A DNA stretch of 64,000 nt, taken from NCBI RefSeq assembly GCF_003334255.1, contig NZ_QOWU01000022.1; one strand, written 5' to 3'. Positions 38,016 to 53,854 of the stretch are shown here, in pieces. The position numbers and the translations under genes are program-made. The notes beneath the pieces are model-generated. The model saw only the letters and a program-made list of their open reading frames with translations. It did no database searches and was not told the DNA's origin. Within the stretch, counting starts at the first letter, position 1; each line of letters begins with the position of its first letter. This DNA is from Escherichia coli. Its GTDB lineage: Bacteria; Pseudomonadota; Gammaproteobacteria; Enterobacterales; Enterobacteriaceae.

Positions 38016-40986
<2,971 letters not shown>

Positions 40987-41156
40987 TATCAATCCTTGAT
41001 AATTCGGTTTGCGCTATGGTGCATCAATTCCCCTGACGGAGATATCGCAACACGCCGCTTCATTAAAAATTCAGAATATATCAAGGTATTGGGGACTCAC
41101 TGCCAGGAATGATTATCCCCAATTAATCAAATGGTTAAGAAACATTACGTTGTGGA

Positions 41157-43469
41157 TCAATACAACTCATCAAGTTTTCTCATCGCTTGTTCCCGTATTG
41201 CGCGCGTCTTACCGTTAAGCGCCAGCTGGCGGACTAAATCCAGTTCAGGGTTAACAAGCTCTAACGCCAGCAAAGGATCACGTTTCAGCCTCGCCTTTAA
41301 TACATCAACTGGAAAACGGGGATTATTCATCGCCACAATCCACCACTCGGGATCAATTTCTGCCGCCAGTACTGCAGGCGGTGTGTGGCGGTTGTTAAGT
41401 GCGCCGAACTTGAAAAATGTGAGATTACTTTTCGCCAGTGTACTCCACCATATACGATCCGGTTGTTTTGCCAGTACATCCAGTTGTGCTAACGCATCGG
41501 GGTCGAGTGCATAATAAACACGTAATGCTTCATCAACCTGCGCACGGGAGCTATTTTCCTGCCTCAGAAAAAACTTCGCCCAAATATCATTGCGTGGCGT
41601 GTTTTGCTGTAATTCCTTGAGAACAACAGCGGGTAAATTATCCCAACTAACTAATGCACTCTCTAAAAAGTCCCAGTCTTCCAAACGTATCAGGGCGGTG
41701 GCATTTAATAGCATCTGGTCATCAACTTCGCCGTGGCTAATCAGCTCAGACAAAATCATATCAGCGCTGGTTTCATATGCTTCTGAATCTGCTTTCGGAT
41801 TATTTTTCCGATGCGATAAAGCACGTTGCCAAATTTTTTGTTTCATCGACGTGCTCAGATACTGATTTTTCGCCAGATTACTCCACCCCTCAGGATCGTT
41901 GAAACGTGTCAATAACCGTTGTAAAGCAGCGTCAGAGTGAATTACCTGCATATCCCGACAGCAAAAGTAGGCAGGGGATTTTTTCTCCATCCTTTTAACA
42001 AAATTAAACTGTAAGTTATCTGGCAACGCTAAAAATAACGCACCTATTAGATCATCGTCATTCTCGAATTTTTGGTATATATATACTGCTATTTTGTCAC
42101 TCTCTTGTGGCGTCATCCGCAACAATTGACCATGGTGTTTCATCTCTGCCAGCTTTAACGCTAAGCTTGTGACAACATCGTTTGATGAATCGTTCGCCAA
42201 CTGCATTGCCTGATTGTAGGTGAGTTGTCCTCCAGCACCGACCTGACGAATAGAGGAATCATCACTGCGGATATAACCATCAATAATGGATTCGGGCAAT
42301 AACCACGCATCTTTATAAAGCTCCTGAATGATCATATCCCAATCTCTTTTCGCCAGAGTCATGACGATATCCAGAGGGAGATTTTCACGTAGCGCAAGAT
42401 TCAACGGACCGACACCATCAGGTAGATGACTCATTCGCGTCATTATTTCGACAGAGAGCGGTTCACGGTCAAGCAACCCCAGAACAACAGGCTGGTAACC
42501 CAATTGCTGATCGGTCAACTCCAGAATCTCATTGTCAGGCATATATCTCGCCATACTTTCAATCGTTTGTTCATCATTGCTATTAATAAGTTGTTTGCGT
42601 AGGTTAGCTGAAATTCCTTTAAGCCTTGGGAGAGTTCGCATTATGGCAAGATCAAATGTCGCAATGTCTCGTCCTTCAAATGCAGCAACTTTGCCTTCAT
42701 CCAGCATTTGCAATTCCTGCACTAACTCAGGAGAAGGCTTAGGGCGAAACAGCGCTTCTTTTTTCATCTGATTACAGACATTCCCTGCTATGCGAATATT
42801 GCTTCGCTTAAAAATTTCTTTCAGAGCATCTTCATCATTTATTAGGCCCCAATAATATGCATCAGGATTTATTATCGTCAGCGCTTTTTTGACATTTTCA
42901 GTGTCATTTTTGTCTCCCGCACGGACCATGAATTCACTATTTATCGAAGACACAACAACAGGTGCAATTATGTCATTGATAAATATCCCACGCGCATTAA
43001 TACTCCCCTTAATCGTAGACGGATTATCGTAATATGAGTCGATAAATACCAGTCCACTTGCATTTATCGAACCGGTAATTAACAGTGGTGAATCTGTAAT
43101 TATATTTGTTGCCGTCACGTTACCGAGAATAACCCATGGATTAGAAAGAGAGAAAGTGGAAATATTTCCTTTGACTGTCAAATTGCCAAGAACAATCAAT
43201 TTTTGATTACTCTCTATATTACCTTCTACCACTAAATCGCCACGATGCACTTTCCAGTCCGATGCAGATAAACCGAAGGGGACAAGATTCACGCTACTGT
43301 TGATAGCTTGTTCAACTTGCTGTTTGTCTTCAGCGGTAGCCGCAGAAAAAAATGGTTCAATATCAACTGCATTTGCAACACATCGAAGTTCCGCCTGAAC
43401 TGGAAGGCTCAGCATAAACAGGGGAAGTAAACCTATCCAGCCGCAAATCCTGGGCTTAAACATATGCAC
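41157..43469 (-). CDS. ydbD: Uncharacterized secreted protein YdbD
   Basis: 770-aa ORF with signal peptide. Confidence 0.8.
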   Translation of the reverse strand: MHMFKPRICGWIGLLPLFMLSLPVQAELRCVANAVDIEPFFSAATAEDKQQVEQAINSSVNLVPFGLSASDWKVHRGDLVVEGNIESNQKLIVLGNLTVKGNISTFSLSNPWVILGNVTATNIITDSPLLITGSINASGLVFIDSYYDNPSTIKGSINARGIFINDIIAPVVVSSINSEFMVRAGDKNDTENVKKALTIINPDAYYWGLINDEDALKEIFKRSNIRIAGNVCNQMKKEALFRPKPSPELVQELQMLDEGKVAAFEGRDIATFDLAIMRTLPRLKGISANLRKQLINSNDEQTIESMARYMPDNEILELTDQQLGYQPVVLGLLDREPLSVEIMTRMSHLPDGVGPLNLALRENLPLDIVMTLAKRDWDMIIQELYKDAWLLPESIIDGYIRSDDSSIRQVGAGGQLTYNQAMQLANDSSNDVVTSLALKLAEMKHHGQLLRMTPQESDKIAVYIYQKFENDDDLIGALFLALPDNLQFNFVKRMEKKSPAYFCCRDMQVIHSDAALQRLLTRFNDPEGWSNLAKNQYLSTSMKQKIWQRALSHRKNNPKADSEAYETSADMILSELISHGEVDDQMLLNATALIRLEDWDFLESALVSWDNLPAVVLKELQQNTPRNDIWAKFFLRQENSSRAQVDEALRVYYALDPDALAQLDVLAKQPDRIWWSTLAKSNLTFFKFGALNNRHTPPAVLAAEIDPEWWIVAMNNPRFPVDVLKARLKRDPLLALELVNPELDLVRQLALNGKTRAIREQAMRKLDELY

Positions 43470-43526
43470 TCCATGCCATTAAAAAAGAAATAAAAGGGAA
43501 ATGCTTCTTTCCCTTTTGTATATTCG

Positions 43527-44387
43527 TTATTCTCGCGAAATACCATCCAATGTAGACAACACTTCCTCAGAAAGATGCAATTTTTCAGCAGCCATATTCT
43601 CCCGTAAATGCGCAACAGAAGATGTCCCTGGGATCAGCAAAATATTCGGTGAACGTTGTAAAAGCCACGCCAGCGCTACCTGCATTGGTGTTGCACCCAG
43701 GCTCGCAGCAACATCGGAAAGCGTGGACGATTGCAGCGGCGTAAAGCCACCGAGCGGGAAGAACGGCACGTAGGCAATGCCATCGCGGGCCAAAGCATCA
43801 ATCATTGCATCATCCGCACGATGAGCAATGTTGTATTCGTTCTGCACGCAGACGATTTCGGCAATCTTACGCGCCTCTGCAACCTGCGTCGGTGTGACGT
43901 TGCTCAGGCCAATATGTTTTACCAGGCCTTGCTGTTGCATCTCTGCCAGCACGGTCAGGCTGGCTTCAATCGACCCTTCCGCCGGGCCATGACCATCCCC
44001 GATCATAACGCGCAGGTTAACCACATCCAGTACGTCCAGCCCGAGATTACGTAGATTATCATGTACCGCTTTTTGCAGCTCTGCCGGAGAAAATGCGGCC
44101 AACCAGGAAGCATCCTCACCACGCCGCGCACCAATTTTAGTCACAATTGTCAGGTCGTCAGAGTAAGGATAAAGCGCTTCGCGGATAATCTGATTGGTGA
44201 CGTGCGGACCATAAAAGTCGCTGGTATCAATGTGATTGACGCCCAATGCCATCGCCTCACGCAGCACGATTATAGCGACGTGGCGATCTCTTGGGGGGCC
44301 AAAAACCCCAGGACCTGCCAGTTGCATCGCGCCATAACCAAGACGGTTAACGGATTTTGTACCGAGAGTAAATGTTTTGCTGCTCAT
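43527..44387 (-). CDS. ydbC: Aldo-keto reductase YdbC
   Basis: 286-aa ORF. Confidence 0.85.
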   Translation of the reverse strand: MSSKTFTLGTKSVNRLGYGAMQLAGPGVFGPPRDRHVAIIVLREAMALGVNHIDTSDFYGPHVTNQIIREALYPYSDDLTIVTKIGARRGEDASWLAAFSPAELQKAVHDNLRNLGLDVLDVVNLRVMIGDGHGPAEGSIEASLTVLAEMQQQGLVKHIGLSNVTPTQVAEARKIAEIVCVQNEYNIAHRADDAMIDALARDGIAYVPFFPLGGFTPLQSSTLSDVAASLGATPMQVALAWLLQRSPNILLIPGTSSVAHLRENMAAEKLHLSEEVLSTLDGISRE

Positions 44388-44540
44388 CGCACCCTGCCCT
44401 GTAATAAAACGGATTAAGAAAAATCAGTATAGAAACGAAAAGAGATAAATAATGCGAAGGTGTAAACAAGATTACAGGATGAGTTGCTCTATTGCCCTGA
44501 AAGACACCAAAACAAAACGCGTCAAGTACCGCATCCGGCA

Positions 44541-44576
44541 ATAAAAAACCGCAACCTGTATCAGCGTTGCGGTTTG
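44541..44576 (-). terminator. Rho-independent terminator downstream of ydbA
   Basis: Minus-strand stem ccgcaac/gttgcgg followed by U-run (plus-strand aaaaaa at 44543-44548). Confidence 0.7.
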
Positions 44577-44594
44577 GGTATCACATGCTAAAAA

Positions 44595-47500
44595 TTAGAA
44601 CGTTTTCTTAAAGTTCAGCATCACGCCTTTATCGCTGATACCGTCCTCTTTCCAGTGGTACGCGTCCAGATTCAGCGAACTTTCTTTGCTGCTGTACTTC
44701 ACGCCGACGCTTGCCAGGCTATTGATGCCGCCGCCCTTCTGATCGTCATCGACGTTAAAGTGCTGGCTGCCTGCGCCTGCCAGGCTTGCCGTGCGCTGGC
44801 TCTTCGCGTAGCTCAGGTTCGGCCCGCCTTCCAGCGTGGCGTTCGCACTCCAGCCGTCTTTTCCTGCATAATCCAGCTTCAGCCCGACGATGCTGTCCAC
44901 CGCCGTTTCGCTGCCGCTGTTCATGCTCAGGTTAAAGTCTCCGGCATTGCGCTCCTGATAGCCACCTTCCAGTGTGTGACGCAGTTTTACACCCGCATAT
45001 GGCGTAACCTTCAGTCCTTCGCTCGGTTCGAAAGTCTTCGCTCCTTCGCTACGGAACTCCAGGTACTGCTGCTTCACGTCGGTATCAGCCGTTTTGTTCG
45101 TGTTGCTAAATGCAATCGAGCGGCTGCTGTCAAGGTTGTGAACGTCATAACGCAATGCGTTATTCCAGTTCATGCCGTTGTCGAAGGACATCTGATGTTT
45201 CAGGCCAAAGAACTGGCTGTAGCCACCGGTGACGCCATTATCACCCGCTTTCTGCGCACCGTCGCCATCCAGACGCGCGATACCGTACTCCAGACTCATG
45301 GTCTGGCTTTCGCTCAGGTCGATGGTTTTACGCAATGCCAGCATGTCGTATTCGGTATTATTACCTAACTCGGCACGCGGATCGCCTTTCGCGACAACGT
45401 TGAACGCCAGACCGTTGCCCACTTTCGGCGCGGCATCCGCCAGCATACTAAAGCGGTTGCTTAACACGCGCGCTTCGCGGAATACCGTGGTTGCCTGGCT
45501 ACCGCTGACCTGTTTCAGAGCGCTGTTCAGTTCAGCAGTCGTGCCGACGTTCAGGCTGGTAAACAGTTCGTTGTTGGTGTAACTCGCATCCAGTGCTTTC
45601 GCGATGTCATTCACCGAAGCATCAGTCGCCACATCGGTATAAGCATTTTTGCTCATGGTGATGTCAACGTTACCGCTGGCATCGGTGCTGCCTTTAGCAG
45701 TCCATACCACGGACGTTGAGGTGATGGCATCCGCATCGGTCAGGTTGCTGCCCTCCACCACGTTATCAAAACTAACGGTGGTGTCTGCGGTACCGGCGGT
45801 AAACCCGGTGTTGATCCCCACGCCGTTCATGCTGGCATTGTTGACCTTGAGCTTACCGGCGCTGCCATCGGCACTCGTTCCCACCACGTAACCGTTGAGA
45901 TTATTCATGCCGTCGTCACTGCTCACGGACGATGACGAGCTACCGCCGCTATAAGGCGTAATCGTCGGCTCATCCGGCGCGGTGAAGTCCACATAGTGCG
46001 CTTCTGTGCCGTCGCCGCCTTCGCCGTTGCCTTCTGCCGAGATACCACTTTGTTTGAAGATACCGGAACCCGTCACGCTGTCGTCGATATACACGATACC
46101 GTTGTTAACGATATGTCCAGCGCTGCCTAACTGGCTGAATGCAAAAGAATCACTGGCGTAAATATTGATGGTGCCATTATTTTCAATGACCGCATCCGCC
46201 TTCGCGTTGCTTTCGAGTTGCATCCCTACCATGCCAGTCTCAGAGGTGCCTTCTGTGCCGACGTTAATGATATTGTTGTTGACCATTTTCGCGCTGCCAT
46301 GCGCCGACATCGCCACATTACCAGTGTTGTCAATATTAATAGTACCGTCGTTCACCACCAGCGTGTTAGCGTTCACGTTCAAGGCAGTCTTGATTTGACC
46401 GTTGATTACGCCCGTCTCACCGTTATAAAGGGTGTGTGGATTGCCAGCGGCCATAATATTAGCGTCACTGTTAACCGTGCCCCAGTTATTAAATGAACCC
46501 GCCCACAATTGACCGTCATCAATTGTTGCTACACCGCCTTGCAGGTTGTTGAATACACCCTTTTTATCCACGGTGACATGATTGACCGTTCCGGCGTTAT
46601 TGAACGTTGATGCAGCAGTAAAAAAGACCTTATCTACCGTTCCACCTGCCTGGTTGTTCATGACGGCAGACACCGATGAGCCTTTCCAGTTGCTCACCGT
46701 TCCGGTGTTATAAACAGCGCTGGCCCACTGTTCGATACTACTAATAGTGCCAGCATTGTTGATGACCGAACCCGCAACTGTCGTAACTACCTGGCCTGTA
46801 ACTGTGCCTTCATTATTAAAGACGCCGCCATCAACAGAAACGGATTGAGTTATCCCCTGGTTGATATATTCACCGTCAATGGCGATAACCACCTTGTTGA
46901 TATTACCCGTGATTTCGTTGGTCAGATTGCCATTATGAGCAACCGTAATGGCTCCGCCCGTCACCGTTCCTGCGTTGGTGATATAAATATCGCTCTCTGC
47001 CAGGGGGTTGGTTACCCCTCCGCTTGTGGGTAAATCCAGCGTTTCGCCTTCAGCGGTAATAACGTTGCCATTATCCCATCCCCGGCTGACGGCACTGTCG
47101 GTCGGGTTATAGCTCGCACTGTCCTGACAAATACCGAACGTGCAGATAGTGCCGTAGTTAACAATAACGCCGGAACCGTCATTGTAAAATGCCTGACCAA
47201 TTTCGGCATTAATATTAATAACGCCAGTCTGATCATTAATTGCGGTTCCGCCATTGTAAACCGCCATACCGACGAGTTTATTCGCGCCAATCGTGTCGTC
47301 ATAGTTATCATTTTTTTCCAGGTTGATAGTCCCCTGGTTAATGACCGTATTGCCATGACCATTAGCGAACATTCCCGCGCCGGCATTATAGATAGTAATG
47401 ACACCGCCTTCTTTATTAATTGCGGTTGCGTTAACTCTGGGGCCGTTAAAATCATCTGTGCCTACCCACATGCCAGCGGCATAATCTCCGGCTCTATTTC

Positions 47501-50300
47501 CATGTATATCGCTGCGTAATTGCGTTGTATCATTAGCATCAACCCATAACGCATCGATAGAGATATTGCCTGCATTCTCAGCCGTCGAGTTGTCTATTGC
47601 CGTCATGCCAATGTTCCCTCGACCATACATATCAATCACGCCACTCTCACCATTGAGTGCATAACTGTTATGGTAGGCTTCGAGAGCAATCATACTCTCC
47701 GTTTGATTATTCGGAATATCACTGCCAGTAGCACCCACGGAGTTTCGCATATTCACCACGCTATACTGCTCCATAACTTTTGCTGTGATGAATCCATTAT
47801 TTGTAACCGTAGCGCCTCCTTGCGCCATTAGCGCTACCCCACCCGGTTCCGGGACTGGATTTGTCGGTGTCGAATAATCATACTGAAGTAATGCGATGCT
47901 GCCGCTGTTAACCGCCGAACTGTTTTCATCGTTGACATTAATAAATTTAATATTCGCTACATCGACATCCCCTTCATTGATGACCTGGGAACCGGAAGAC
48001 GCATTTATTATCGCAGGAGTCGCATCAAAATAGTGTTCGAATATATTGACATCCTTCGTTGAAAAAGAGGCATCATCGCCTATCTTCAACATTGCACCAT
48101 CATTCAACTGGATAATACTGGAGTAACCTACCGGGAAATCACCGCCTATTACCGAGTCACCATTCAGGTATACGGATGAGTTGCCATCAACCTTAATAAG
48201 AGGAGTGGAGCCGCTTCCCTTACGTGCGGAGGCAATATCCTCTCCGTTGGTTAAGGTATTTGCCTCTCCCCTGAATTGCACGCCACCATTAAGTGCTACC
48301 GTATTACCATCACCCGTGATCACCAGTCCGGAGATGTTTTCCTGGCTACCGTCAAAACGTGCATAGGTACGATTCGTGGTTTCGCTATCCACGACCATCG
48401 TTAACTGACCATCCAGTGTAATATCATTATTATCACCGCTGACATTAACGCCAACGGATGGGTCGTAAAAATATTCTGCCGCATTATCAGCCAACTGGTT
48501 TTTATCGACCAGTATATTGCCGGCGATATCGATGGTATTCCCGTTCCCGGCGACATTGACCCCTGTCGCATCCTGTCCGGTGACGTTCAGCTCATAGGTG
48601 GCCAGCGTCATAGTGTTATTATTGCCAACCACATCCAGACCTGTGGAGAAATCACCCACATACATACCACCCGCAAGTGAGATATCGCCAGCGTCGCCAA
48701 TAACCTGAACTCCCGTCCCTGCATTGCTGGCAGAAATATCACCCACGTTCATAAACGTGGCGTTATCCCCCGCAATCTTCACACCTGTGGCATTCTCTTC
48801 CGCATTGCCATTGCTGGCGGAAATATCACCCATATTGATAAATGTGGTGTCATTACCCTGCAACTCAATGCCAATGGATTTCTCATCCACGACGGTTATA
48901 TTGCCTTTATTGCTGATAATGGTGCCATCTCCATCAACAATAATTCCACGTGCGCCACCGCTTACATAAAGATCGCCTGATTGTTTAACCAGTGCATCGT
49001 TACCGGTAATTTTCGACCCCGTCGAATGTTCTCCGTCGACGGTCATGACACCTTTATTACTTACTACCGCGTTGTCGCCATTAATCTCGCTGCCGGTCCC
49101 ACCATTGGTAAACGTCGAGTCACCCGCGGTATTCAATGTCGCGCGATCGCCATTGATAATAACCGCCGTCCCGCCATCAACTTCCGTTTCACCATTATTA
49201 TTGATGGTGATATCGTCGCCGGTCAGGATACCGACCACTGAGCCTTCGCCAATTGCGGTGGTTTTACCGTCGTTATTAAGGGTTATATCGTGACCGTCAA
49301 CAACCATCACCGTGCCACCATTCAGCGCGGTATTTCCACCCTTATCGGTGATGGTGGCATCGTTAACCTGGAAATGGTCACCTGTAGTTCCATCAGCAAC
49401 CGTACCCGCCTCTTTGACAATATGGATTTTGCCATCGTCATCATAACGCCAGGTGATCCCGCCCGCCGTATTGACGCCGTCAAAGCTGACAGTGTTGGCC
49501 GCCTCGTCAACGGACCAGGTTTTTACAATCGTCGTTTTGCCATTTGGCCCGGTAAGTGTGTAACTGCCGTCTTCATTTTTAGCGTAGGTGAAGGTGGTAT
49601 TACGAATTTCTACGGTCTTCGCATCCTGATCCCAGGTGACATTATTTTTATAAACGACAGGATCGTGTTTGACTGGGGTGTCATCACCATCGTCGTCCGG
49701 GGTATCGTCACCATCATCGTCCGGTGGTACCGGGGTGTCACCGCCATCGTCCGGTGGTACCGGGGTGTCGCCGCCATCGTCCGGTGGGACCGGGGTGTCG
49801 CCGCCATCGTCCGGTGGTACCGGGGTGTCACCGCCATCGTCCGGTGGCACCGGGGTGTCGCCGCCATCGTCCGGTGGGACTGGTGTGTCGCCACCATCGT
49901 CCGGTGGGACTGGTGTGTCGTCGCCATCATCCGGCGGTACCGGGGTGTCGCCGCCATCGTCCGGCGGTACTGGTGTGTTGCCGCCATCGTCCGGCACCGG
50001 AGATGGATCGTCGTGATGGTGATTATTATCATCGTGGAGTGCATACACCGCTACGCCTGTTGCCACCGCAGCCAGGCCCACTGCAGCCCAGGGTAACAAC
50101 TCACTATCTTCAGCTGATTTACACTCTGCTGGCAGCTTTTCTAACTGTTCTTTACTCAGTGATTTAATATTGACCGGGCAGCTAATCTTGCTGGATTTAC
50201 GAGACTCATCCGATGTTTCCGCTATCGACGTATCTGCTGCCCAGGTCTGGCTGCTTAACGCCATTGCAACACAGACACTAAGCATTTTTTTCCTTTGCAT
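44595..50300 (-). CDS. ydbA: Giant autotransporter adhesin-like protein YdbA, uninterrupted
   Basis: Single 1901-aa ORF: signal peptide, Pro/Asp-rich decapeptide repeats, long Gly/Asn/Thr-rich passenger, C-terminal beta-barrel ending ...LNFKKTF. Confidence 0.85.
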   Translation of the reverse strand: MQRKKMLSVCVAMALSSQTWAADTSIAETSDESRKSSKISCPVNIKSLSKEQLEKLPAECKSAEDSELLPWAAVGLAAVATGVAVYALHDDNNHHHDDPSPVPDDGGNTPVPPDDGGDTPVPPDDGDDTPVPPDDGGDTPVPPDDGGDTPVPPDDGGDTPVPPDDGGDTPVPPDDGGDTPVPPDDGGDTPVPPDDDGDDTPDDDGDDTPVKHDPVVYKNNVTWDQDAKTVEIRNTTFTYAKNEDGSYTLTGPNGKTTIVKTWSVDEAANTVSFDGVNTAGGITWRYDDDGKIHIVKEAGTVADGTTGDHFQVNDATITDKGGNTALNGGTVMVVDGHDITLNNDGKTTAIGEGSVVGILTGDDITINNNGETEVDGGTAVIINGDRATLNTAGDSTFTNGGTGSEINGDNAVVSNKGVMTVDGEHSTGSKITGNDALVKQSGDLYVSGGARGIIVDGDGTIISNKGNITVVDEKSIGIELQGNDTTFINMGDISASNGNAEENATGVKIAGDNATFMNVGDISASNAGTGVQVIGDAGDISLAGGMYVGDFSTGLDVVGNNNTMTLATYELNVTGQDATGVNVAGNGNTIDIAGNILVDKNQLADNAAEYFYDPSVGVNVSGDNNDITLDGQLTMVVDSETTNRTYARFDGSQENISGLVITGDGNTVALNGGVQFRGEANTLTNGEDIASARKGSGSTPLIKVDGNSSVYLNGDSVIGGDFPVGYSSIIQLNDGAMLKIGDDASFSTKDVNIFEHYFDATPAIINASSGSQVINEGDVDVANIKFINVNDENSSAVNSGSIALLQYDYSTPTNPVPEPGGVALMAQGGATVTNNGFITAKVMEQYSVVNMRNSVGATGSDIPNNQTESMIALEAYHNSYALNGESGVIDMYGRGNIGMTAIDNSTAENAGNISIDALWVDANDTTQLRSDIHGNRAGDYAAGMWVGTDDFNGPRVNATAINKEGGVITIYNAGAGMFANGHGNTVINQGTINLEKNDNYDDTIGANKLVGMAVYNGGTAINDQTGVININAEIGQAFYNDGSGVIVNYGTICTFGICQDSASYNPTDSAVSRGWDNGNVITAEGETLDLPTSGGVTNPLAESDIYITNAGTVTGGAITVAHNGNLTNEITGNINKVVIAIDGEYINQGITQSVSVDGGVFNNEGTVTGQVVTTVAGSVINNAGTISSIEQWASAVYNTGTVSNWKGSSVSAVMNNQAGGTVDKVFFTAASTFNNAGTVNHVTVDKKGVFNNLQGGVATIDDGQLWAGSFNNWGTVNSDANIMAAGNPHTLYNGETGVINGQIKTALNVNANTLVVNDGTINIDNTGNVAMSAHGSAKMVNNNIINVGTEGTSETGMVGMQLESNAKADAVIENNGTINIYASDSFAFSQLGSAGHIVNNGIVYIDDSVTGSGIFKQSGISAEGNGEGGDGTEAHYVDFTAPDEPTITPYSGGSSSSSVSSDDGMNNLNGYVVGTSADGSAGKLKVNNASMNGVGINTGFTAGTADTTVSFDNVVEGSNLTDADAITSTSVVWTAKGSTDASGNVDITMSKNAYTDVATDASVNDIAKALDASYTNNELFTSLNVGTTAELNSALKQVSGSQATTVFREARVLSNRFSMLADAAPKVGNGLAFNVVAKGDPRAELGNNTEYDMLALRKTIDLSESQTMSLEYGIARLDGDGAQKAGDNGVTGGYSQFFGLKHQMSFDNGMNWNNALRYDVHNLDSSRSIAFSNTNKTADTDVKQQYLEFRSEGAKTFEPSEGLKVTPYAGVKLRHTLEGGYQERNAGDFNLSMNSGSETAVDSIVGLKLDYAGKDGWSANATLEGGPNLSYAKSQRTASLAGAGSQHFNVDDDQKGGGINSLASVGVKYSSKESSLNLDAYHWKEDGISDKGVMLNFKKTF
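49670..50000. repeat. Tandem 30-nt coding repeat array (about 10 copies) inside ydbA
   Basis: Repeated ggtgtcaccgccatcgtccggtggtaccgg units encoding (T)PVPPDDGGD. Confidence 0.85.
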
Positions 50301-50701
50301 ATGAAATTCCTCATAAATAGATGATTACGCAGCCCAGATAAACTGCACAGGGTTAAATAGTTACAAACATTCGAAATCTGGATATTGTTTTTAACAGAAT
50401 AAATATATTGATTTAGCGAATATATTTATTCATTAAGTCAATATATTTATTCTTTAATTTATATTTTTAACGCATTTATTTCAACATAAAATATGGCGTA
50501 GTTGAGATTAAATCCGATAATACCTATGAATTAAATAATACAAGTAATTCATGTGGTAAATAAATCATCATGTTAATGAAGCATTTCTTATCGGCATCTA
50601 TATGAAATTAAATAAAAAATAATTCTCAATAGTATTACAGTTATTATTGAATGTTTCAGGAGGTACAACCAGACAGATTTTTCTCGACGAATACCGAATT
50701 A

Positions 50702-51025
50702 TTATTTTTGCAACCACATCCCGTTTATCCCGCGAATGTATTCTCCCGGCTTAGCTTTTGCTACCAGTTTCTGCCCAGCCAATTTTTCCACTTCTGCAAC
50801 CGGCAAATTATTTTTTATGGCGAGTTTTTGATAGCTCTTTTTACGCGATTCATTAATCGTTTTGACTAACATCTGTGTTTCGGTATCCGCCTTTAATGCA
50901 ACCAGATAACCATTATACGTTTCGCCAACACGCCCCTGAGTTCGAGCGTCATCCAGCGTCAGCGCCATCGCACTGGCGTTAAATAATGCATTAATGACAA
51001 AACACAGCATTAAATTTCTCTTCAT
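50702..51025 (-). CDS. ydbL: DUF1318-family periplasmic protein YdbL
   Basis: ORF 50702..51106 trimmed to MKRNLMLCFVINALFNASAMA. Confidence 0.75.
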   Translation of the reverse strand: MKRNLMLCFVINALFNASAMALTLDDARTQGRVGETYNGYLVALKADTETQMLVKTINESRKKSYQKLAIKNNLPVAEVEKLAGQKLVAKAKPGEYIRGINGMWLQK

Positions 51026-51032
51026 ACTCGCC

Positions 51033-51218
51033 TCAGAAAAGATCGCTACGGGTCTCAAGCAGCTCTTCGACATCTTTGTCTGCCTTGATGATGATCTCAT
51101 GCTCAATTTTAACGTTCATATTGATAGTGATCGGTTCCTTAGGTGCAGCGACTTCAATGCGAGGCGTACAGCCAACCAGCATAAAAGATGACGTCAACGC
51201 AGCCAGTAAAATTTTCAT
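51033..51218 (-). CDS. ynbE: Small lipoprotein YnbE
   Basis: 61-aa ORF with lipobox MLVGCTP. Confidence 0.8.
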   Translation of the reverse strand: MKILLAALTSSFMLVGCTPRIEVAAPKEPITINMNVKIEHEIIIKADKDVEELLETRSDLF

Positions 51219-53854
51219 TGTTTTTCCTCACACTCTTTTCCTTGCGGACAGTCATTTCCCGGCAGACGTGCGTTCTGCTCCAACCATGCCTGGAGATTAT
51301 CGCCAAAGCGTAAACTGCGCCACAGCGTAAAAATATTCTCTTCATGATGGTAATTAAGGTTTACCGTACCGCTTTTACCATCAACGCGACTGGTACCTGT
51401 AATGTTGGCCTGCATGGTTAATAAACCGAGATTATCTAAGTTAATTTTTGTCGATGACCGGCTAATTTCCATATAGCGCAACCAGTTAATTGCTGAACCC
51501 GCAGTCATATTGTCTTTCACCACCGCATCTGCGGTGTCTTTATCCAGCCGCAAGGTCATTGGCCCGCTATTTGCCAGCCAACCATCTTTCACTATCCATT
51601 TTTCGTTGTTTAGCCATAACGGCAATGCACCACTAAATGCCCCGGACATGGCGAATTGTTTCGGATTGACGGCGCTAACCAGTTCGCTGGATGAGAGATT
51701 ATTCAGCCGCAACAGCGCCGGGTCATGTTGCGGCATGCGTAATTGTTTCATCAGCACGTTACCGCCTAAAACATCGACGCTAACATCAGTCAACAGCAAG
51801 GGTTCTTCTTCAGTCCACGGATAACGCCCTTGCAAATCAGCCGTAATATTTTTCGCTGTCACCAGATTAATCACTTCGGCAATTCGCAACATAACGGGGC
51901 CGCGAGTCCCCAGATGCCAGGCTCCATCGGCAAAACGGAAAGGCAGGACAAAATCGACACCGTTAACCTGATTATCTGGCATCCAGGCACTACCGCCTTT
52001 CAACACGCCGTGCCCTCCCGCGCGGAATCCTTGTTCAGGCGCAGCAGAAAATGCAACCTGAGCATACAGTTCACCATCGCGTAAGTTCATCTTCCAGTCG
52101 GGTGGCACCAGCGGCTGGAATACAGTCAGTGATTGTTTAGGCCACCAGGCGTTACCGCGCAGACGAATACCGTCCCAGCGACCATTTACCCGAACCGGGC
52201 CAATCTCACCAGCATGTAAATCGCCTTTAAAGAGGAAATACGTCGGATCGCGCCCATCGACGCTAAATTTTAAGGTTGATGGCGGTAACACACTGCCGCC
52301 AGTGAACAGCGTTTGCCCGGCGTCCAGTGACAGCGCGCCGCTGAAGGAGGGATGCTGTGCGTCACGTACCCAGACGACGGGCTTGTCGAGAATTAATCGC
52401 GGCTTTTCTACCGTCATCGTACCGTATTGTAACTGGTCGAAACCGGTGGAGAGATCGGTCAGCGTAATCGTGCTGTCATGCCACTCACCCTTTCCTGCGA
52501 CATCCCAGGTGGCATTCATCGGTGTAAAACTGCCTTTTCCCCAGTAGCGCCACTGCCAGCGGCCAGCGTCAGGGAGAAAATCATTCGCCAGCCCATCCAT
52601 ATGCAGCACGAAATCGCCCAGTTCATTTTCATGCGCCTGCAAAATGGCCTGCAAACGTCCGTCAACACCACGTTGGGTGACTTTTACACCCGCTAAAGGC
52701 CAGCGGATTTCATCGATGTCCAGCGAATCGATGACTCTTCCCTTTGAACGAAGTAACGCGCCTGGCTCAAAGGTCAGCGTTGGGTCAGACAGACTTCCAC
52801 TTAGCTGCGCGGGTAAGCGGGCATATAAAATGAGGTCCGCCTGTTTCGCTTCACCGGTCAGCTGTAAAGGCAGCTGGCTGTTATCCATGCTTAATTTTCC
52901 TGGGCCAAAATTTAGCACCGCGTTGCCCTTACCCGCTTGCCCCTGGGTCAGCACACTCAGTCGTCCGCTGACCAGAGCGTTCTCAAGCCCTGCCTGCCAG
53001 TTGTCGACTTTGACACCCAGTCGGCCACTCAAAGGAAAACCTGCATACGGCCAGCTCCAGCGACCATCGCTTATGGTCAATTGTTGACGAGTAATTTGCC
53101 ACGGCAAATCGAGCAACGGATCGCCGTTATCCCGTGCCAGCACGATCAATTGCCCGCTATTTTCCTGCCAGTCCAGCTCTGCATCCACCAGTGACGGTTC
53201 CTGCGGCAAGTTTAACGTCGCAGTAGCATGCCCACTTACAGGAAGTCCATCCGGCACGAGCGGCATAGTAAATTCCCCCACCAGTTTAACCGGCGGCTGA
53301 TTTTCAAACGCGACGACATCCAGTTCGCTGACTGTAAGTTGTTGCTCTTTCAGCTGGCCTTGAAATTTAACTTTTTCGCCCTGATAACGCAGTTGCTGGA
53401 TATCAGAGGTTAATGCGAGAGAGAGTTTTCCCTGCCATTCCTGCCAGGGAGAAAAAATCAGTTTATCGATATTGATCCAGGTGTTAGGCAGCATGGACTG
53501 CCACTGCGCGAGGGTTTTTGGAGCAGCTGGCGATTGCTCCGTCTGCGGCAATTTCGCCAGACAAGCAGAATCAAGTTCTACCGTGCCGACGTTCAATAAC
53601 CAGCGGCTCGGATGTGAAAGGCTGGCGTTGGTGATATGCGCAAGCTGACAATCTCCCACCAGATAACGAAGATCGGGAATGATTAAACCTTTACGCGTAA
53701 TGCGTGGGCTTTCATCTAATGCAATACGTGTCCCGAGCGGTAGCCAGATGCCCGCCAGCGTGGGAACCCACAGCCCGAGCGTCATCAGCAGCGTCAACGG
53801 CACAAGAATAATCAGTAATAACAGCGCGAGAACGGCTTTATATTTACCCAGCAT
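51215..53854 (-). CDS. ydbH: Large AsmA-like membrane-anchored protein YdbH
   Basis: 879-aa ORF with N-terminal TM anchor; forms ydbH-ynbE-ydbL cluster. Confidence 0.85.
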   Translation of the reverse strand: MLGKYKAVLALLLLIILVPLTLLMTLGLWVPTLAGIWLPLGTRIALDESPRITRKGLIIPDLRYLVGDCQLAHITNASLSHPSRWLLNVGTVELDSACLAKLPQTEQSPAAPKTLAQWQSMLPNTWINIDKLIFSPWQEWQGKLSLALTSDIQQLRYQGEKVKFQGQLKEQQLTVSELDVVAFENQPPVKLVGEFTMPLVPDGLPVSGHATATLNLPQEPSLVDAELDWQENSGQLIVLARDNGDPLLDLPWQITRQQLTISDGRWSWPYAGFPLSGRLGVKVDNWQAGLENALVSGRLSVLTQGQAGKGNAVLNFGPGKLSMDNSQLPLQLTGEAKQADLILYARLPAQLSGSLSDPTLTFEPGALLRSKGRVIDSLDIDEIRWPLAGVKVTQRGVDGRLQAILQAHENELGDFVLHMDGLANDFLPDAGRWQWRYWGKGSFTPMNATWDVAGKGEWHDSTITLTDLSTGFDQLQYGTMTVEKPRLILDKPVVWVRDAQHPSFSGALSLDAGQTLFTGGSVLPPSTLKFSVDGRDPTYFLFKGDLHAGEIGPVRVNGRWDGIRLRGNAWWPKQSLTVFQPLVPPDWKMNLRDGELYAQVAFSAAPEQGFRAGGHGVLKGGSAWMPDNQVNGVDFVLPFRFADGAWHLGTRGPVMLRIAEVINLVTAKNITADLQGRYPWTEEEPLLLTDVSVDVLGGNVLMKQLRMPQHDPALLRLNNLSSSELVSAVNPKQFAMSGAFSGALPLWLNNEKWIVKDGWLANSGPMTLRLDKDTADAVVKDNMTAGSAINWLRYMEISRSSTKINLDNLGLLTMQANITGTSRVDGKSGTVNLNYHHEENIFTLWRSLRFGDNLQAWLEQNARLPGNDCPQGKECEEKQ

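Follow-up and report, generated by a model that had tools for sequence, protein, structure and literature searches.

The 64,000-nt stretch of Escherichia coli DNA analysed here (the window; contig NZ_QOWU01000022.1) carries on its minus strand an uninterrupted 1901-aa ORF that runs from an ATG at 50300 to 44595 and ends in ...KKTF and a stop codon, as seen in the ORF list and its translation. The gene order around it is ydbH-ynbE-ydbL-(gene)-pdxI-ydbD, and in nine closely matching genomes as well as in K-12, O157, UTI89 and CFT073 the slot between ydbL and pdxI (ydbC) is the ydbA locus. The paa/fea cluster is absent here between ydbL and the ORF. The first-pass annotation had named the gene ydbA, which holds for the locus but not for the passenger: the DNA aligns to K-12 ydbA only over the last 23% of the gene (93.7% identity), and the passenger allele occurs in eight of 5426 complete E. 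coli genomes. The same slot houses UpaH of uropathogenic E. coli CFT073, which also has the N-terminal module, the BigA_N domain and the barrel in common with the present protein. From locus and sequence we infer that upaH and ydbA are one gene, even though no paper naming both was found in our literature search. We identify the ORF as an intact allele of E. coli ydbA, known as UpaH in uropathogenic strains and belonging to the BigA family. As the upaH/BigA-family adhesin the gene has been studied before, and the exact 1901-aa protein is an existing NCBI entry.

The protein has the parts expected of a type Va autotransporter, all encoded on the minus strand, and the earlier description of a single intact ORF with signal peptide, passenger and β-barrel is borne out. 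A predicted Sec signal peptide (aa 1–21; 50238..50300), read by eye from the translation as MQRKKMLSVCVAMALSSQTWA followed by AD, consists of a hydrophobic core between a positively charged n-region (MQRKK) and a TWA/AD end, and is conserved in 22 of 22 aligned family members. Beyond the N-terminal region discussed below lies BigA_N, a small β-barrel domain (aa 215–294; 49419..49658; Pfam PF25784, E 9.9e-30). It is followed by a passenger (45894..49418) in which precomputed annotation places matches to BigA_3rd and BigA_4th, and which holds an 87-nt imperfect duplication (48722–48888) detected in a repeat scan. Gly, Asn, Asp and Thr are the four most frequent residues, which fits a β-helical passenger with β-strand repeats, as does the homology to the UTI89 passenger; the middle of the passenger is the allele-specific part of the gene. 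The C-terminal part consists of a BigA_beta sandwich domain (aa 1470–1553; 45642..45893; Pfam PF25783, E 4.3e-25) and an autotransporter β-domain, the translocator barrel (aa 1675–1869; 44694..45278; Pfam PF03797, E 2.4e-18). The last residue is Phe, the terminal aromatic typical of type Va autotransporters. No PDB chain matched the full-length protein in a sequence search.

BigA_N together with BigA_beta, the ydbA position and the N-terminal module place the protein in the BigA/YdbA (UpaH) subfamily. The profile for Salmonella BigA (NF033178, an equivalog) matches along most of the protein, with the best stretch at residues 304–1901, and BigA_N, BigA_3rd, BigA_4th and BigA_beta are common to both. 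The score of 1081.8 bits is far below the curated cut-off of 3400, and on profile evidence the protein is a family relative of Salmonella BigA, not its orthologue.

The segment between the signal peptide and BigA_N has a layout of its own. A Cys-bounded motif (CPxxIxxLxxxxxxxLPxxC; aa 41–60; 50121..50180) is probably closed by a disulfide; C41, P42, L48, L56 and C60 are invariant in an alignment of 22 family members, and AF2, in a model covering residues 1–330, predicts short helices here with pLDDT around 82. Next comes a Gly/Ala-rich hydrophobic segment, ELLPWAAVGLAAVATGVAVYAL (aa 67–88; 50037..50102), which contains the top Kyte-Doolittle 19-mer of the mature protein (1.77), is found in every family member and has a nearly invariant G75. 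It is marginal as a membrane segment (+0.4 to +4 kcal/mol in a rough Hessa-type sum), and AF2 models it with very low confidence (pLDDT 29–46), too low to inform on a helix or its packing. A His/Asp-rich junction (HDDNNHHHDD; aa 89–98; 50007..50036), with N/D/G/H-rich counterparts in homologues, then leads into a tandem repeat. The order of signal peptide, Cys motif, hydrophobic segment, Pro/Asp-rich repeat and BigA_N is common to the 22 diverse members, across which the repeat unit itself is lineage-specific, and every full-length representative shows it, 64 representatives having been found among 1.84 billion proteins. A Foldseek search of the N-terminal AF2 model against the PDB returned nothing at E <= 1e-3 and hence no fold-based clue to the function of BigA_N or of the cap formed by the Cys motif and the hydrophobic segment.

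The repeat is a 30-nt in-frame tandem array at 49674..50006, corresponding to residues about 99–209 of 1901 and encoding about ten TPVPPDDGGD decapeptides. It had initially been described as about ten copies at 49670–50000, and an in-register parse into units A–K refines this to a leading degenerate unit (PSPVPDDGGN), nine strict units of the form TPVPPDD(G/D)(G/D)D and a final degenerate unit. In Tandem Repeats Finder the stretch at 49715–49994 scores 434, with a period of 30 nt, 9.3 copies and 91% matches, and a degenerate tail is listed at 49675–49729. Nine sites vary among units, seven of them synonymous third positions and two Gly-to-Asp changes. Within the array no stop codon interrupts five of the six reading frames, which explains as repeat artefacts the overlapping ORFs at 49290–50096 and 49669–50016 and 49724–50167 on the plus strand and at 49610–50044 on the minus strand; those on the strand opposite to the gene had already been described as such. 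Residues 89–214 include 42 Asp and 33 Pro with a net charge of -41, and AF2 models the array as devoid of secondary structure with pLDDT 50–59, compared with an all-β BigA_N at pLDDT >90. The array is best read, on this modelling, as a disordered polyanionic tether at the membrane-distal end, between the N-terminal cap and BigA_N. The motif PPDDGG was not found in the literature searched, and the search gave no paper linking ydbA with tandem repeats.

Comparison among strains, a step proposed together with the suggestion that the array is unstable in copy number, confirmed this instability. The full-length proteins in the 90% cluster are 1901, 1911, 1921, 1971 and 1981 aa long, and strict units among cluster members number 9–17. 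Counted over the whole array, there are 10 units here and 16 and 18 elsewhere, and the 18-unit genomes have no mismatch outside the array. These are the complete genomes of the Symbioflor-2 strains (G1/2, G6/7 and G8), which show 0 mismatches to the window's gene outside the array and flanks that are 100.0% identical over 24.6 kb and 13.7 kb (38 kb). Their array can be written AB[MNNOMMGP]CDEFGHIJK, that of the window ABCDEFGHIJK, a difference of eight units. O157-type alleles in complete genomes have 2, 7, 7 and 9 units, together with one or two 27-nt units (the 9-aa TPVPDDGGD) that also stay in frame, and two other intact alleles have 9 and 12 units. The array is a genuine in-frame VNTR in which the length of the protein changes and the gene is not switched on or off.

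The ORF is preceded by an AT-rich intergenic region (50301..50701; 25% GC in 50300–50599) with a 21-nt tandem repeat at 50398–50457. A promoter and terminator scan gave results at or below shuffle expectation, and an Rfam scan of 43400–51400 revealed no RNA family. In an alignment that spanned ydbL as well, conservation between alleles is poor in the AT-rich upstream region. H-NS reportedly represses upaH (Allsopp and colleagues, 2012), and this together with the low GC content suggests that the allele may be silent under laboratory conditions.

These observations lead us to a model in which the gene encodes an adhesin of the classical type Va autotransporter class, with an acidic in-frame repeat tether that varies in length without ON/OFF switching, a reading that we regard as probable. 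The Sec signal peptide would bring the protein to the periplasm, where the C-terminal barrel would insert in the outer membrane. The passenger of ~1650 residues would then be threaded out with its C-terminal end first, leaving the N-terminus farthest from the cell. The array would form an intrinsically disordered, Pro-rich and strongly acidic spacer (net charge ~-41) joining BigA_N to a cap made up of an 18-residue disulfide loop and the marginally hydrophobic Gly/Ala-rich segment. Because the units are near-identical in DNA and their length is divisible by three, whole decapeptides would be gained or lost by replication slippage or unequal recombination, each changing the tether by at most ~3 nm of contour length. 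The reading frame would never be broken, such that the outcome would be variation in length and antigenicity rather than ON/OFF phase variation.

The first question is whether the short array is real. Collapse during assembly, in which the isolate carries 18 units and a short-read assembler skipped eight of them, is suggested by the three complete Symbioflor-2 genomes, identical outside the array and in the flanks and all with eight more units, and by the distribution of the 10-copy form, since the exact 1901-aa protein is found on draft contigs only (50 kb to 1 Mb) and never on a complete chromosome. Up to k=36 the short form has no k-mer that the long form lacks, making a de Bruijn shortcut possible at low k. 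Short-read assemblies do struggle here: databases contain many partial proteins terminating within the array, and querying a word index of proteins with the first 300 residues recovered short or partial proteins only, reflecting contig breaks. Moreover, upaH has been misassembled before, in CFT073. However, at least two assemblies made independently of each other (GCA_003334255.1 and GCA_965136505.1) contain the identical 5706-nt gene, and the exact protein stands under four accessions from submissions that, judged from accession prefixes, apparently span ~2015–2025. The junction also requires a novel 37-mer, which assemblers running at k>=55 would not invent; the longest internal exact repeat is 43 nt in the short array as against 59 nt in the long one, making the short array assemblable; and complete genomes of other alleles do vary in copy number. 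We consider collapse unlikely. The 37-mer, GCCGGACGATGGCGGCGACACCCCGGTACCGCCGGAT, is diagnostic for the 10-copy form, and array length from short-read assemblies should in general not be trusted. Near-identical tandem units within a surface-protein gene that differ in number between close relatives could bring to mind a contingency locus, in which frameshifts would turn the adhesin ON and OFF. This is hardly credible here: the unit is 30 nt (27 nt in some O157-type units) and divisible by three, all array variants examined are in frame with full-length proteins stepping by multiples of 10 residues, and the frameshifts seen in relatives fall outside the array.

What the array does is a separate matter. 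It was originally proposed to be a length-variable stalk, determining the reach of the adhesin beyond the cell surface, and stalks of surface proteins are indeed often Pro-rich, extended and length-polymorphic like this array. We find this very improbable. In type Va autotransporters the C-terminal barrel is the anchor; the array (residues ~99–209) is at the opposite end from it (residues 1675–1869), at the membrane-distal tip, where it would not lift the passenger away from the cell. In alleles of the K-12, CFT073 and UTI89 types, whose passengers are much longer (up to 2771 aa), the linker is short (~45 aa) and non-repetitive, implying that linker length neither scales with nor substitutes for passenger length. 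Alternatively, the array may do nothing. In this lineage the gene could be a relic, silent and decaying, with an array that varies neutrally and without consequence for the cell. Independent inactivations are common at the ydbA locus, the upstream region is AT-rich, only some 42% of phylogroup A strains are reported to have full-length ydbA (PMC4951805), and copy number varies in broken O157 alleles too; with a gene this frequently broken in E. coli, array variation may be largely neutral. On the other hand, the allele is intact across 5.7 kb, unit variation is chiefly synonymous (seven of nine sites), and the N-terminal layout with its Pro/Asp-rich repeat is kept in distant members despite different repeat units, which points to selection for the presence of a linker of this type. 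We therefore regard a relic as possible, though rather less likely than not, and keep to the reading of the array as a tether in a classical type Va adhesin.

It is not easy to reconcile an autotransporter with a hydrophobic segment that follows a cleavable signal peptide, and translocation of this segment is presumed in our model. Two anchoring roles for this segment were considered and rejected. An inner-membrane anchor conflicts with topology, because with a spanning helix after a cleaved signal peptide the passenger would stay cytoplasmic, and the rough insertion energy is also unfavourable. Folding back to anchor the tip in the cell's own outer membrane is disfavoured because the linker does not become longer with the passenger. 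A more speculative idea, which we think doubtful, is that the cap (a disulfide loop plus a glycine-zipper-like segment) on a tunable, polyanionic, polyproline-type tether constitutes a distinct functional device, a distal “hook on a line”. If so, the cap would insert into or associate with a partner membrane, neighbouring cell or surface, and copy number would set its reach. A 591-aa relative (P0084) has little beyond the N-terminal module, two BigA_N-like domains and the barrel, an architecture that would fit the N-terminal module as the functional core and the β-helix as the expandable part.

UpaH of CFT073, reportedly described by Allsopp and colleagues in 2010 and 2012, is the nearest system for comparison. 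The UTI89 homologue (2771 aa) is 55% identical over about 1650 aa to the 1901-aa protein. Conserved ends with a hypervariable middle are characteristic of upaH (PMC8281228) and are seen here as well, along with a repetitive, misassembly-prone sequence. The differences are that the passenger here is ~900 residues shorter (1901 versus 2771–2845 aa), that its central part is the rare allele found in the eight complete genomes, and that a decapeptide array takes the place of the short non-repetitive Pro/Asp linker of CFT073, UTI89 and K-12. Pertactin of Bordetella pertussis is likewise a type Va autotransporter, with in-frame Pro-rich repeats (GGxxP and PQP) that vary among strains without inactivation; these are immunodominant and located in loops of, or C-terminal to, the β-helix. 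Copy-variable short in-frame Pro-rich repeats are thus a shared trait, but the array here is a long N-terminal polyanionic linker placed before the first folded domain. TonB-type spacers are similar in being Pro-rich, charged, extended segments after a hydrophobic one, with a contour length similar to the periplasmic width. The N-terminal signal anchor of TonB is uncleaved, whereas here the hydrophobic segment comes after a cleavable signal peptide and a 45-residue domain, and the resemblance is one of composition only. The biological stakes are small, since the adhesin gene of which this is an intact allele is already known in E. coli and highly polymorphic; the natural length variants could nevertheless be used to dissect the N-terminal module of disulfide loop, hydrophobic segment and acidic Pro-rich repeat.

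Broken copies are found in several lineages. We confirm the noted disruption of K-12 ydbA, which is split by IS2 and IS30; elsewhere the gene is split in O157, frameshifted in one relative (L003) and C-terminally truncated in some cluster members. In CFT073 a split, N-containing gene occupies the corresponding 6.6-kb gap, which fits published statements that upaH is misassembled in this genome (PMC3419190, PMC5595812). Annotation adds to the confusion. In six of the eight complete genomes with the passenger allele, RefSeq/PGAP lists two “incomplete” pseudogene fragments, and in at least five of these six (G1/2, G6/7, G8, MB06232 and JP538) the ORF is actually intact and encodes 1981 aa. Such misannotations make censuses of pseudogenes and adhesins at the ydbA locus unreliable. 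The UTI89 orthologue, for its part, carries the label “EntS/YbdA MFS transporter”.

A single frame on the minus strand, from ATG to stop with 1901 codons between 44595 and 50300, bears out the uninterrupted autotransporter ORF proposed in the first-pass annotation. Its account of a 30-nt repeat encoding TPVPPDDGGD is likewise accurate. Tandem Repeats Finder gives a period of 30 nt at 49715–49994 (9.3 copies, 91% matches, score 434) and a degenerate tail at 49675–49729, and parsed in register the array runs over 49674–50006 on the minus strand as units A–K: a degenerate PSPVPDDGGN, nine TPVPPDD(G/D)(G/D)D and a degenerate DTPDDDGDDT. GC content is 70% in the array and ~50% in the remainder of the gene. 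Only one of the six reading frames, a minus-strand one, has any stop within the array, hence the long overlapping ORFs listed there, which had rightly been dismissed as repeat artefacts. Because seven of the nine variable sites among the units are synonymous third positions and two are Gly-to-Asp changes, the peptide sequence may be under constraint. Inside the passenger, an 87-nt imperfect duplication (48722–48888; 1.9 copies, 75% matches) reflects its beta-strand-repeat structure.

The protein has a canonical predicted signal peptide, ends in ...KKTF and carries the Pfam domains BigA_N (aa 215–294, E 9.9e-30), BigA_beta (aa 1470–1553, E 4.3e-25) and autotransporter beta-domain (aa 1675–1869, E 2.4e-18), with BigA_3rd and BigA_4th among precomputed hits. 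The Salmonella BigA model (NCBIfam) covers most of it at 1081.8 bits, far under the 3400-bit cut-off. We read the ORF as an intact ydbA/upaH allele, since it lies between ydbH-ynbE-ydbL and pdxI(ydbC)-ydbD (the ydbA slot), as do its counterparts in the nine most closely matching E. coli genomes, the 6.6-kb gap at this slot in the original CFT073 genome contains a split gene with Ns, and UTI89 has here an intact 2771-aa ORF with 55% identity to the window protein over ~1650 residues. Allsopp and colleagues reportedly placed upaH, in 2010, in a 6.5-kb unannotated intergenic region. In CFT073, the highly repetitive upaH was assembled wrongly when the genome was closed and initially reported as frameshifted (PMC3419190; PMC5595812). 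The K-12 gene is interrupted by IS2 and IS30, as had been stated; full-length ydbA is found in ~42% of phylogroup A strains (PMC4951805), so intactness alone is unremarkable. The window strain lacks the paa cluster found upstream in K-12: ydbA directly follows ydbL (50301–51214), whereas K-12 has fea, tynA and the paa phenylacetate cluster between them (L010:1–3694), and this interval is a known heterogeneity region (PMC4951805).

The gene family is known and the exact protein is already public, under four NCBI accessions; a 1981-aa form is known from 19 contigs, complete chromosomes among them. Some part of the gene is matched in 3098 of 5426 complete E. coli genomes (~57%), and at least 80% of it in only 8. 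The K-12 alignment is limited to the final 23% of the gene, at 93.7% identity, and the comparison with K-12 in the first-pass annotation understates the divergence of the passenger. The 5´ 586 nt are ~87% identical to other alleles. Such conserved ends around a variable middle have been reported for upaH (PMC8281228).

Outside the array, the window gene shows no mismatch to those of strains G1/2, G6/7 and G8, components of the Symbioflor 2 probiotic (PMC4358396), and the flanks of 24.6 kb and 13.7 kb are 100.0% identical, with G1/2 scoring just short of a perfect match in the 13.7-kb flank. The sole difference is a clean in-frame block of 240 nt: the unit order is ABCDEFGHIJK in the window and AB[MNNOMMGP]CDEFGHIJK in six of the complete genomes examined, which include these three. 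Strain cM8a is two units short of the longer string. In the 193-member cluster at 90% identity, the full-length proteins read are of 1901, 1911, 1921, 1971 and 1981 aa, strict units number 9, 9, 10, 11, 15, 16, 16, 17 and 17 per member, and the Gly-to-Asp marker unit differs in position. O157-type alleles in complete genomes have 2, 7, 7 and 9 units and two further intact alleles 9 and 12, while in the K-12, CFT073 and UTI89 types the same position is taken by a short Pro/Asp-rich linker that is not repetitive. Since counts differ between otherwise identical genes, within the cluster and among O157-type alleles, the array is a real in-frame VNTR, and the suspected proneness to copy-number change is confirmed. 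All units observed measure 30 nt, apart from 27-nt ones in O157-type alleles, which rules out a frameshift switch.

Whether the window itself has ten copies is a separate question: the first-pass annotation named assembly collapse as a refutation, and the evidence points both ways. The exact 1901-aa protein is found only in draft assemblies, on five contigs between 50 kb and 1 Mb long, and 18 units are present in the completely sequenced clonal relatives. Many partial database proteins terminate within the array, showing that contigs break there, and the long form contains every k-mer, up to k=36, that the short form has. The junction of the short form does, however, require a novel 37-mer, GCCGGACGATGGCGGCGACACCCCGGTACCGCCGGAT, and exact repeats within the short array reach at most 43 nt, compared with 59 nt in the long form, so that it should assemble correctly at k≥55. 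Moreover, the gene is base-for-base the same on contigs of two independent assemblies, and judging by prefixes the accessions appear to cover about a decade, from which several pipelines are inferred. We regard an artefact as rather unlikely and the ten-copy count of the first-pass annotation as probably real.

What remains of interest is the family's N-terminal cap-and-tether module, along with the pitfalls that the ydbA locus poses for annotation and assembly. With the array trimmed from the query, the N-terminal region found only 64 relatives among 1.84 billion representative proteins. The same order recurs in every full-length relative: after the signal peptide come a Cys-bounded motif CPxx(I)xxLxxxxxxxLPxxC, in which C41, P42, L48, L56 and C60 are invariant, a hydrophobic segment rich in Gly and Ala with a nearly invariant G75, a stretch rich in N, D, G and H, a tandem repeat rich in Pro and Asp, and finally BigA_N. 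The repeat unit varies by lineage (TPVPPDDGGD, VTPPDDGGN, TPDDGGN, PDPT/PIPD, DPV, DNGG); place and composition of the linker are thus conserved, and unit and length free. A 591-aa protein of the representative library, P0084, is a minimal member without the long beta-helix: its signal peptide, Cys motif and hydrophobic segment are followed by a short linker and two BigA_N-like repeats, which lead directly into the C-terminal autotransporter region.

Residues 89–214 of the window protein include 42 Asp and 33 Pro (net charge −41). AF2 predicts no secondary structure over the array (pLDDT 50–59), and is confident for the Cys motif (pLDDT ~82) and BigA_N (above 90). As the barrel anchor is C-terminal, the array would lie at the membrane-distal end, probably as a tether joining the N-terminal cap to the first folded domain. 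The length-variable stalk suggested earlier does not hold: the array would not sit beneath the passenger, and the shortest linkers occur in alleles with much longer passengers, which speaks against a stalk and against fold-back anchoring. No stretch of the mature protein is more hydrophobic than the Gly/Ala-rich segment (Kyte-Doolittle 1.77); on a rough Hessa-type sum the segment is only marginal. If it spanned the membrane behind a cleaved signal peptide, the passenger would remain stuck in the cytoplasm, and we therefore infer that the segment is exported together with the passenger. Allsopp and colleagues reportedly defined, in 2012, a "hydrophobic region" and a "conserved region" of UpaH whose deletion lowered biofilm formation, and upaH is said in the same work to be repressed by H-NS. 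The region upstream of the ORF's start codon has 25% GC, consistent with H-NS silencing. It contains, ~100–160 nt from the start codon, a 21-nt tandem repeat, AATATATTTATTCATTAAGCC (50398–50457; 2.9 copies, 82% matches), which may serve regulation or be related to H-NS; in other ydbA alleles the upstream region is poorly conserved.

RefSeq/PGAP breaks an intact ORF of 1981 aa into two pseudogene fragments marked "incomplete" in five of the eight nearest complete genomes (L001:7455–13400, L002, L005, L007 and L009, orthologous to window 44595–50300), and only in strain B-1109 (L004) is it annotated as a single CDS. The gap between the fragments covers the array and BigA_N, and the split looks like an artefact of array-length mismatch with reference proteins. 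The sixth split, in WP7-S17-ESBL-04 (L003:2455–8399), is a real 1-nt frameshift: the gene is 1 nt short, the shift falls late in the barrel-coding region, as in cluster members P0021, P0022 and P0024 of the same passenger allele, and the proteins end ...NALRMTFTTLTAAARLHLATRTKRLIPT. This is either independent inactivation or sequencing error in an otherwise identical gene. The 2771-aa autotransporter of UTI89 (L013:2828–11143, NC_007946.1) is named "EntS/YbdA MFS transporter" in RefSeq, a label that recurs on other B2 genomes and apparently stems from confusion of YdbA with YbdA. In the 376-aa E. coli protein P0007, the first ~190 YdbA residues (four repeat units and part of BigA_N) are fused to a SAM-dependent methyltransferase, probably ynbC, which points to an isolate with a deletion running from ydbA into the ynb genes. 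The window has a 556-aa ORF (39322–40992, minus strand) in place of K-12 ynbA, ynbB and ynbC; as the identical G1/2 genome annotates it as a 5´ ynbA fragment (CDP-alcohol phosphatidyltransferase) overlapping a 3´ ynbC fragment (methyltransferase), a deletion would seem to have removed ynbB and joined its neighbours.
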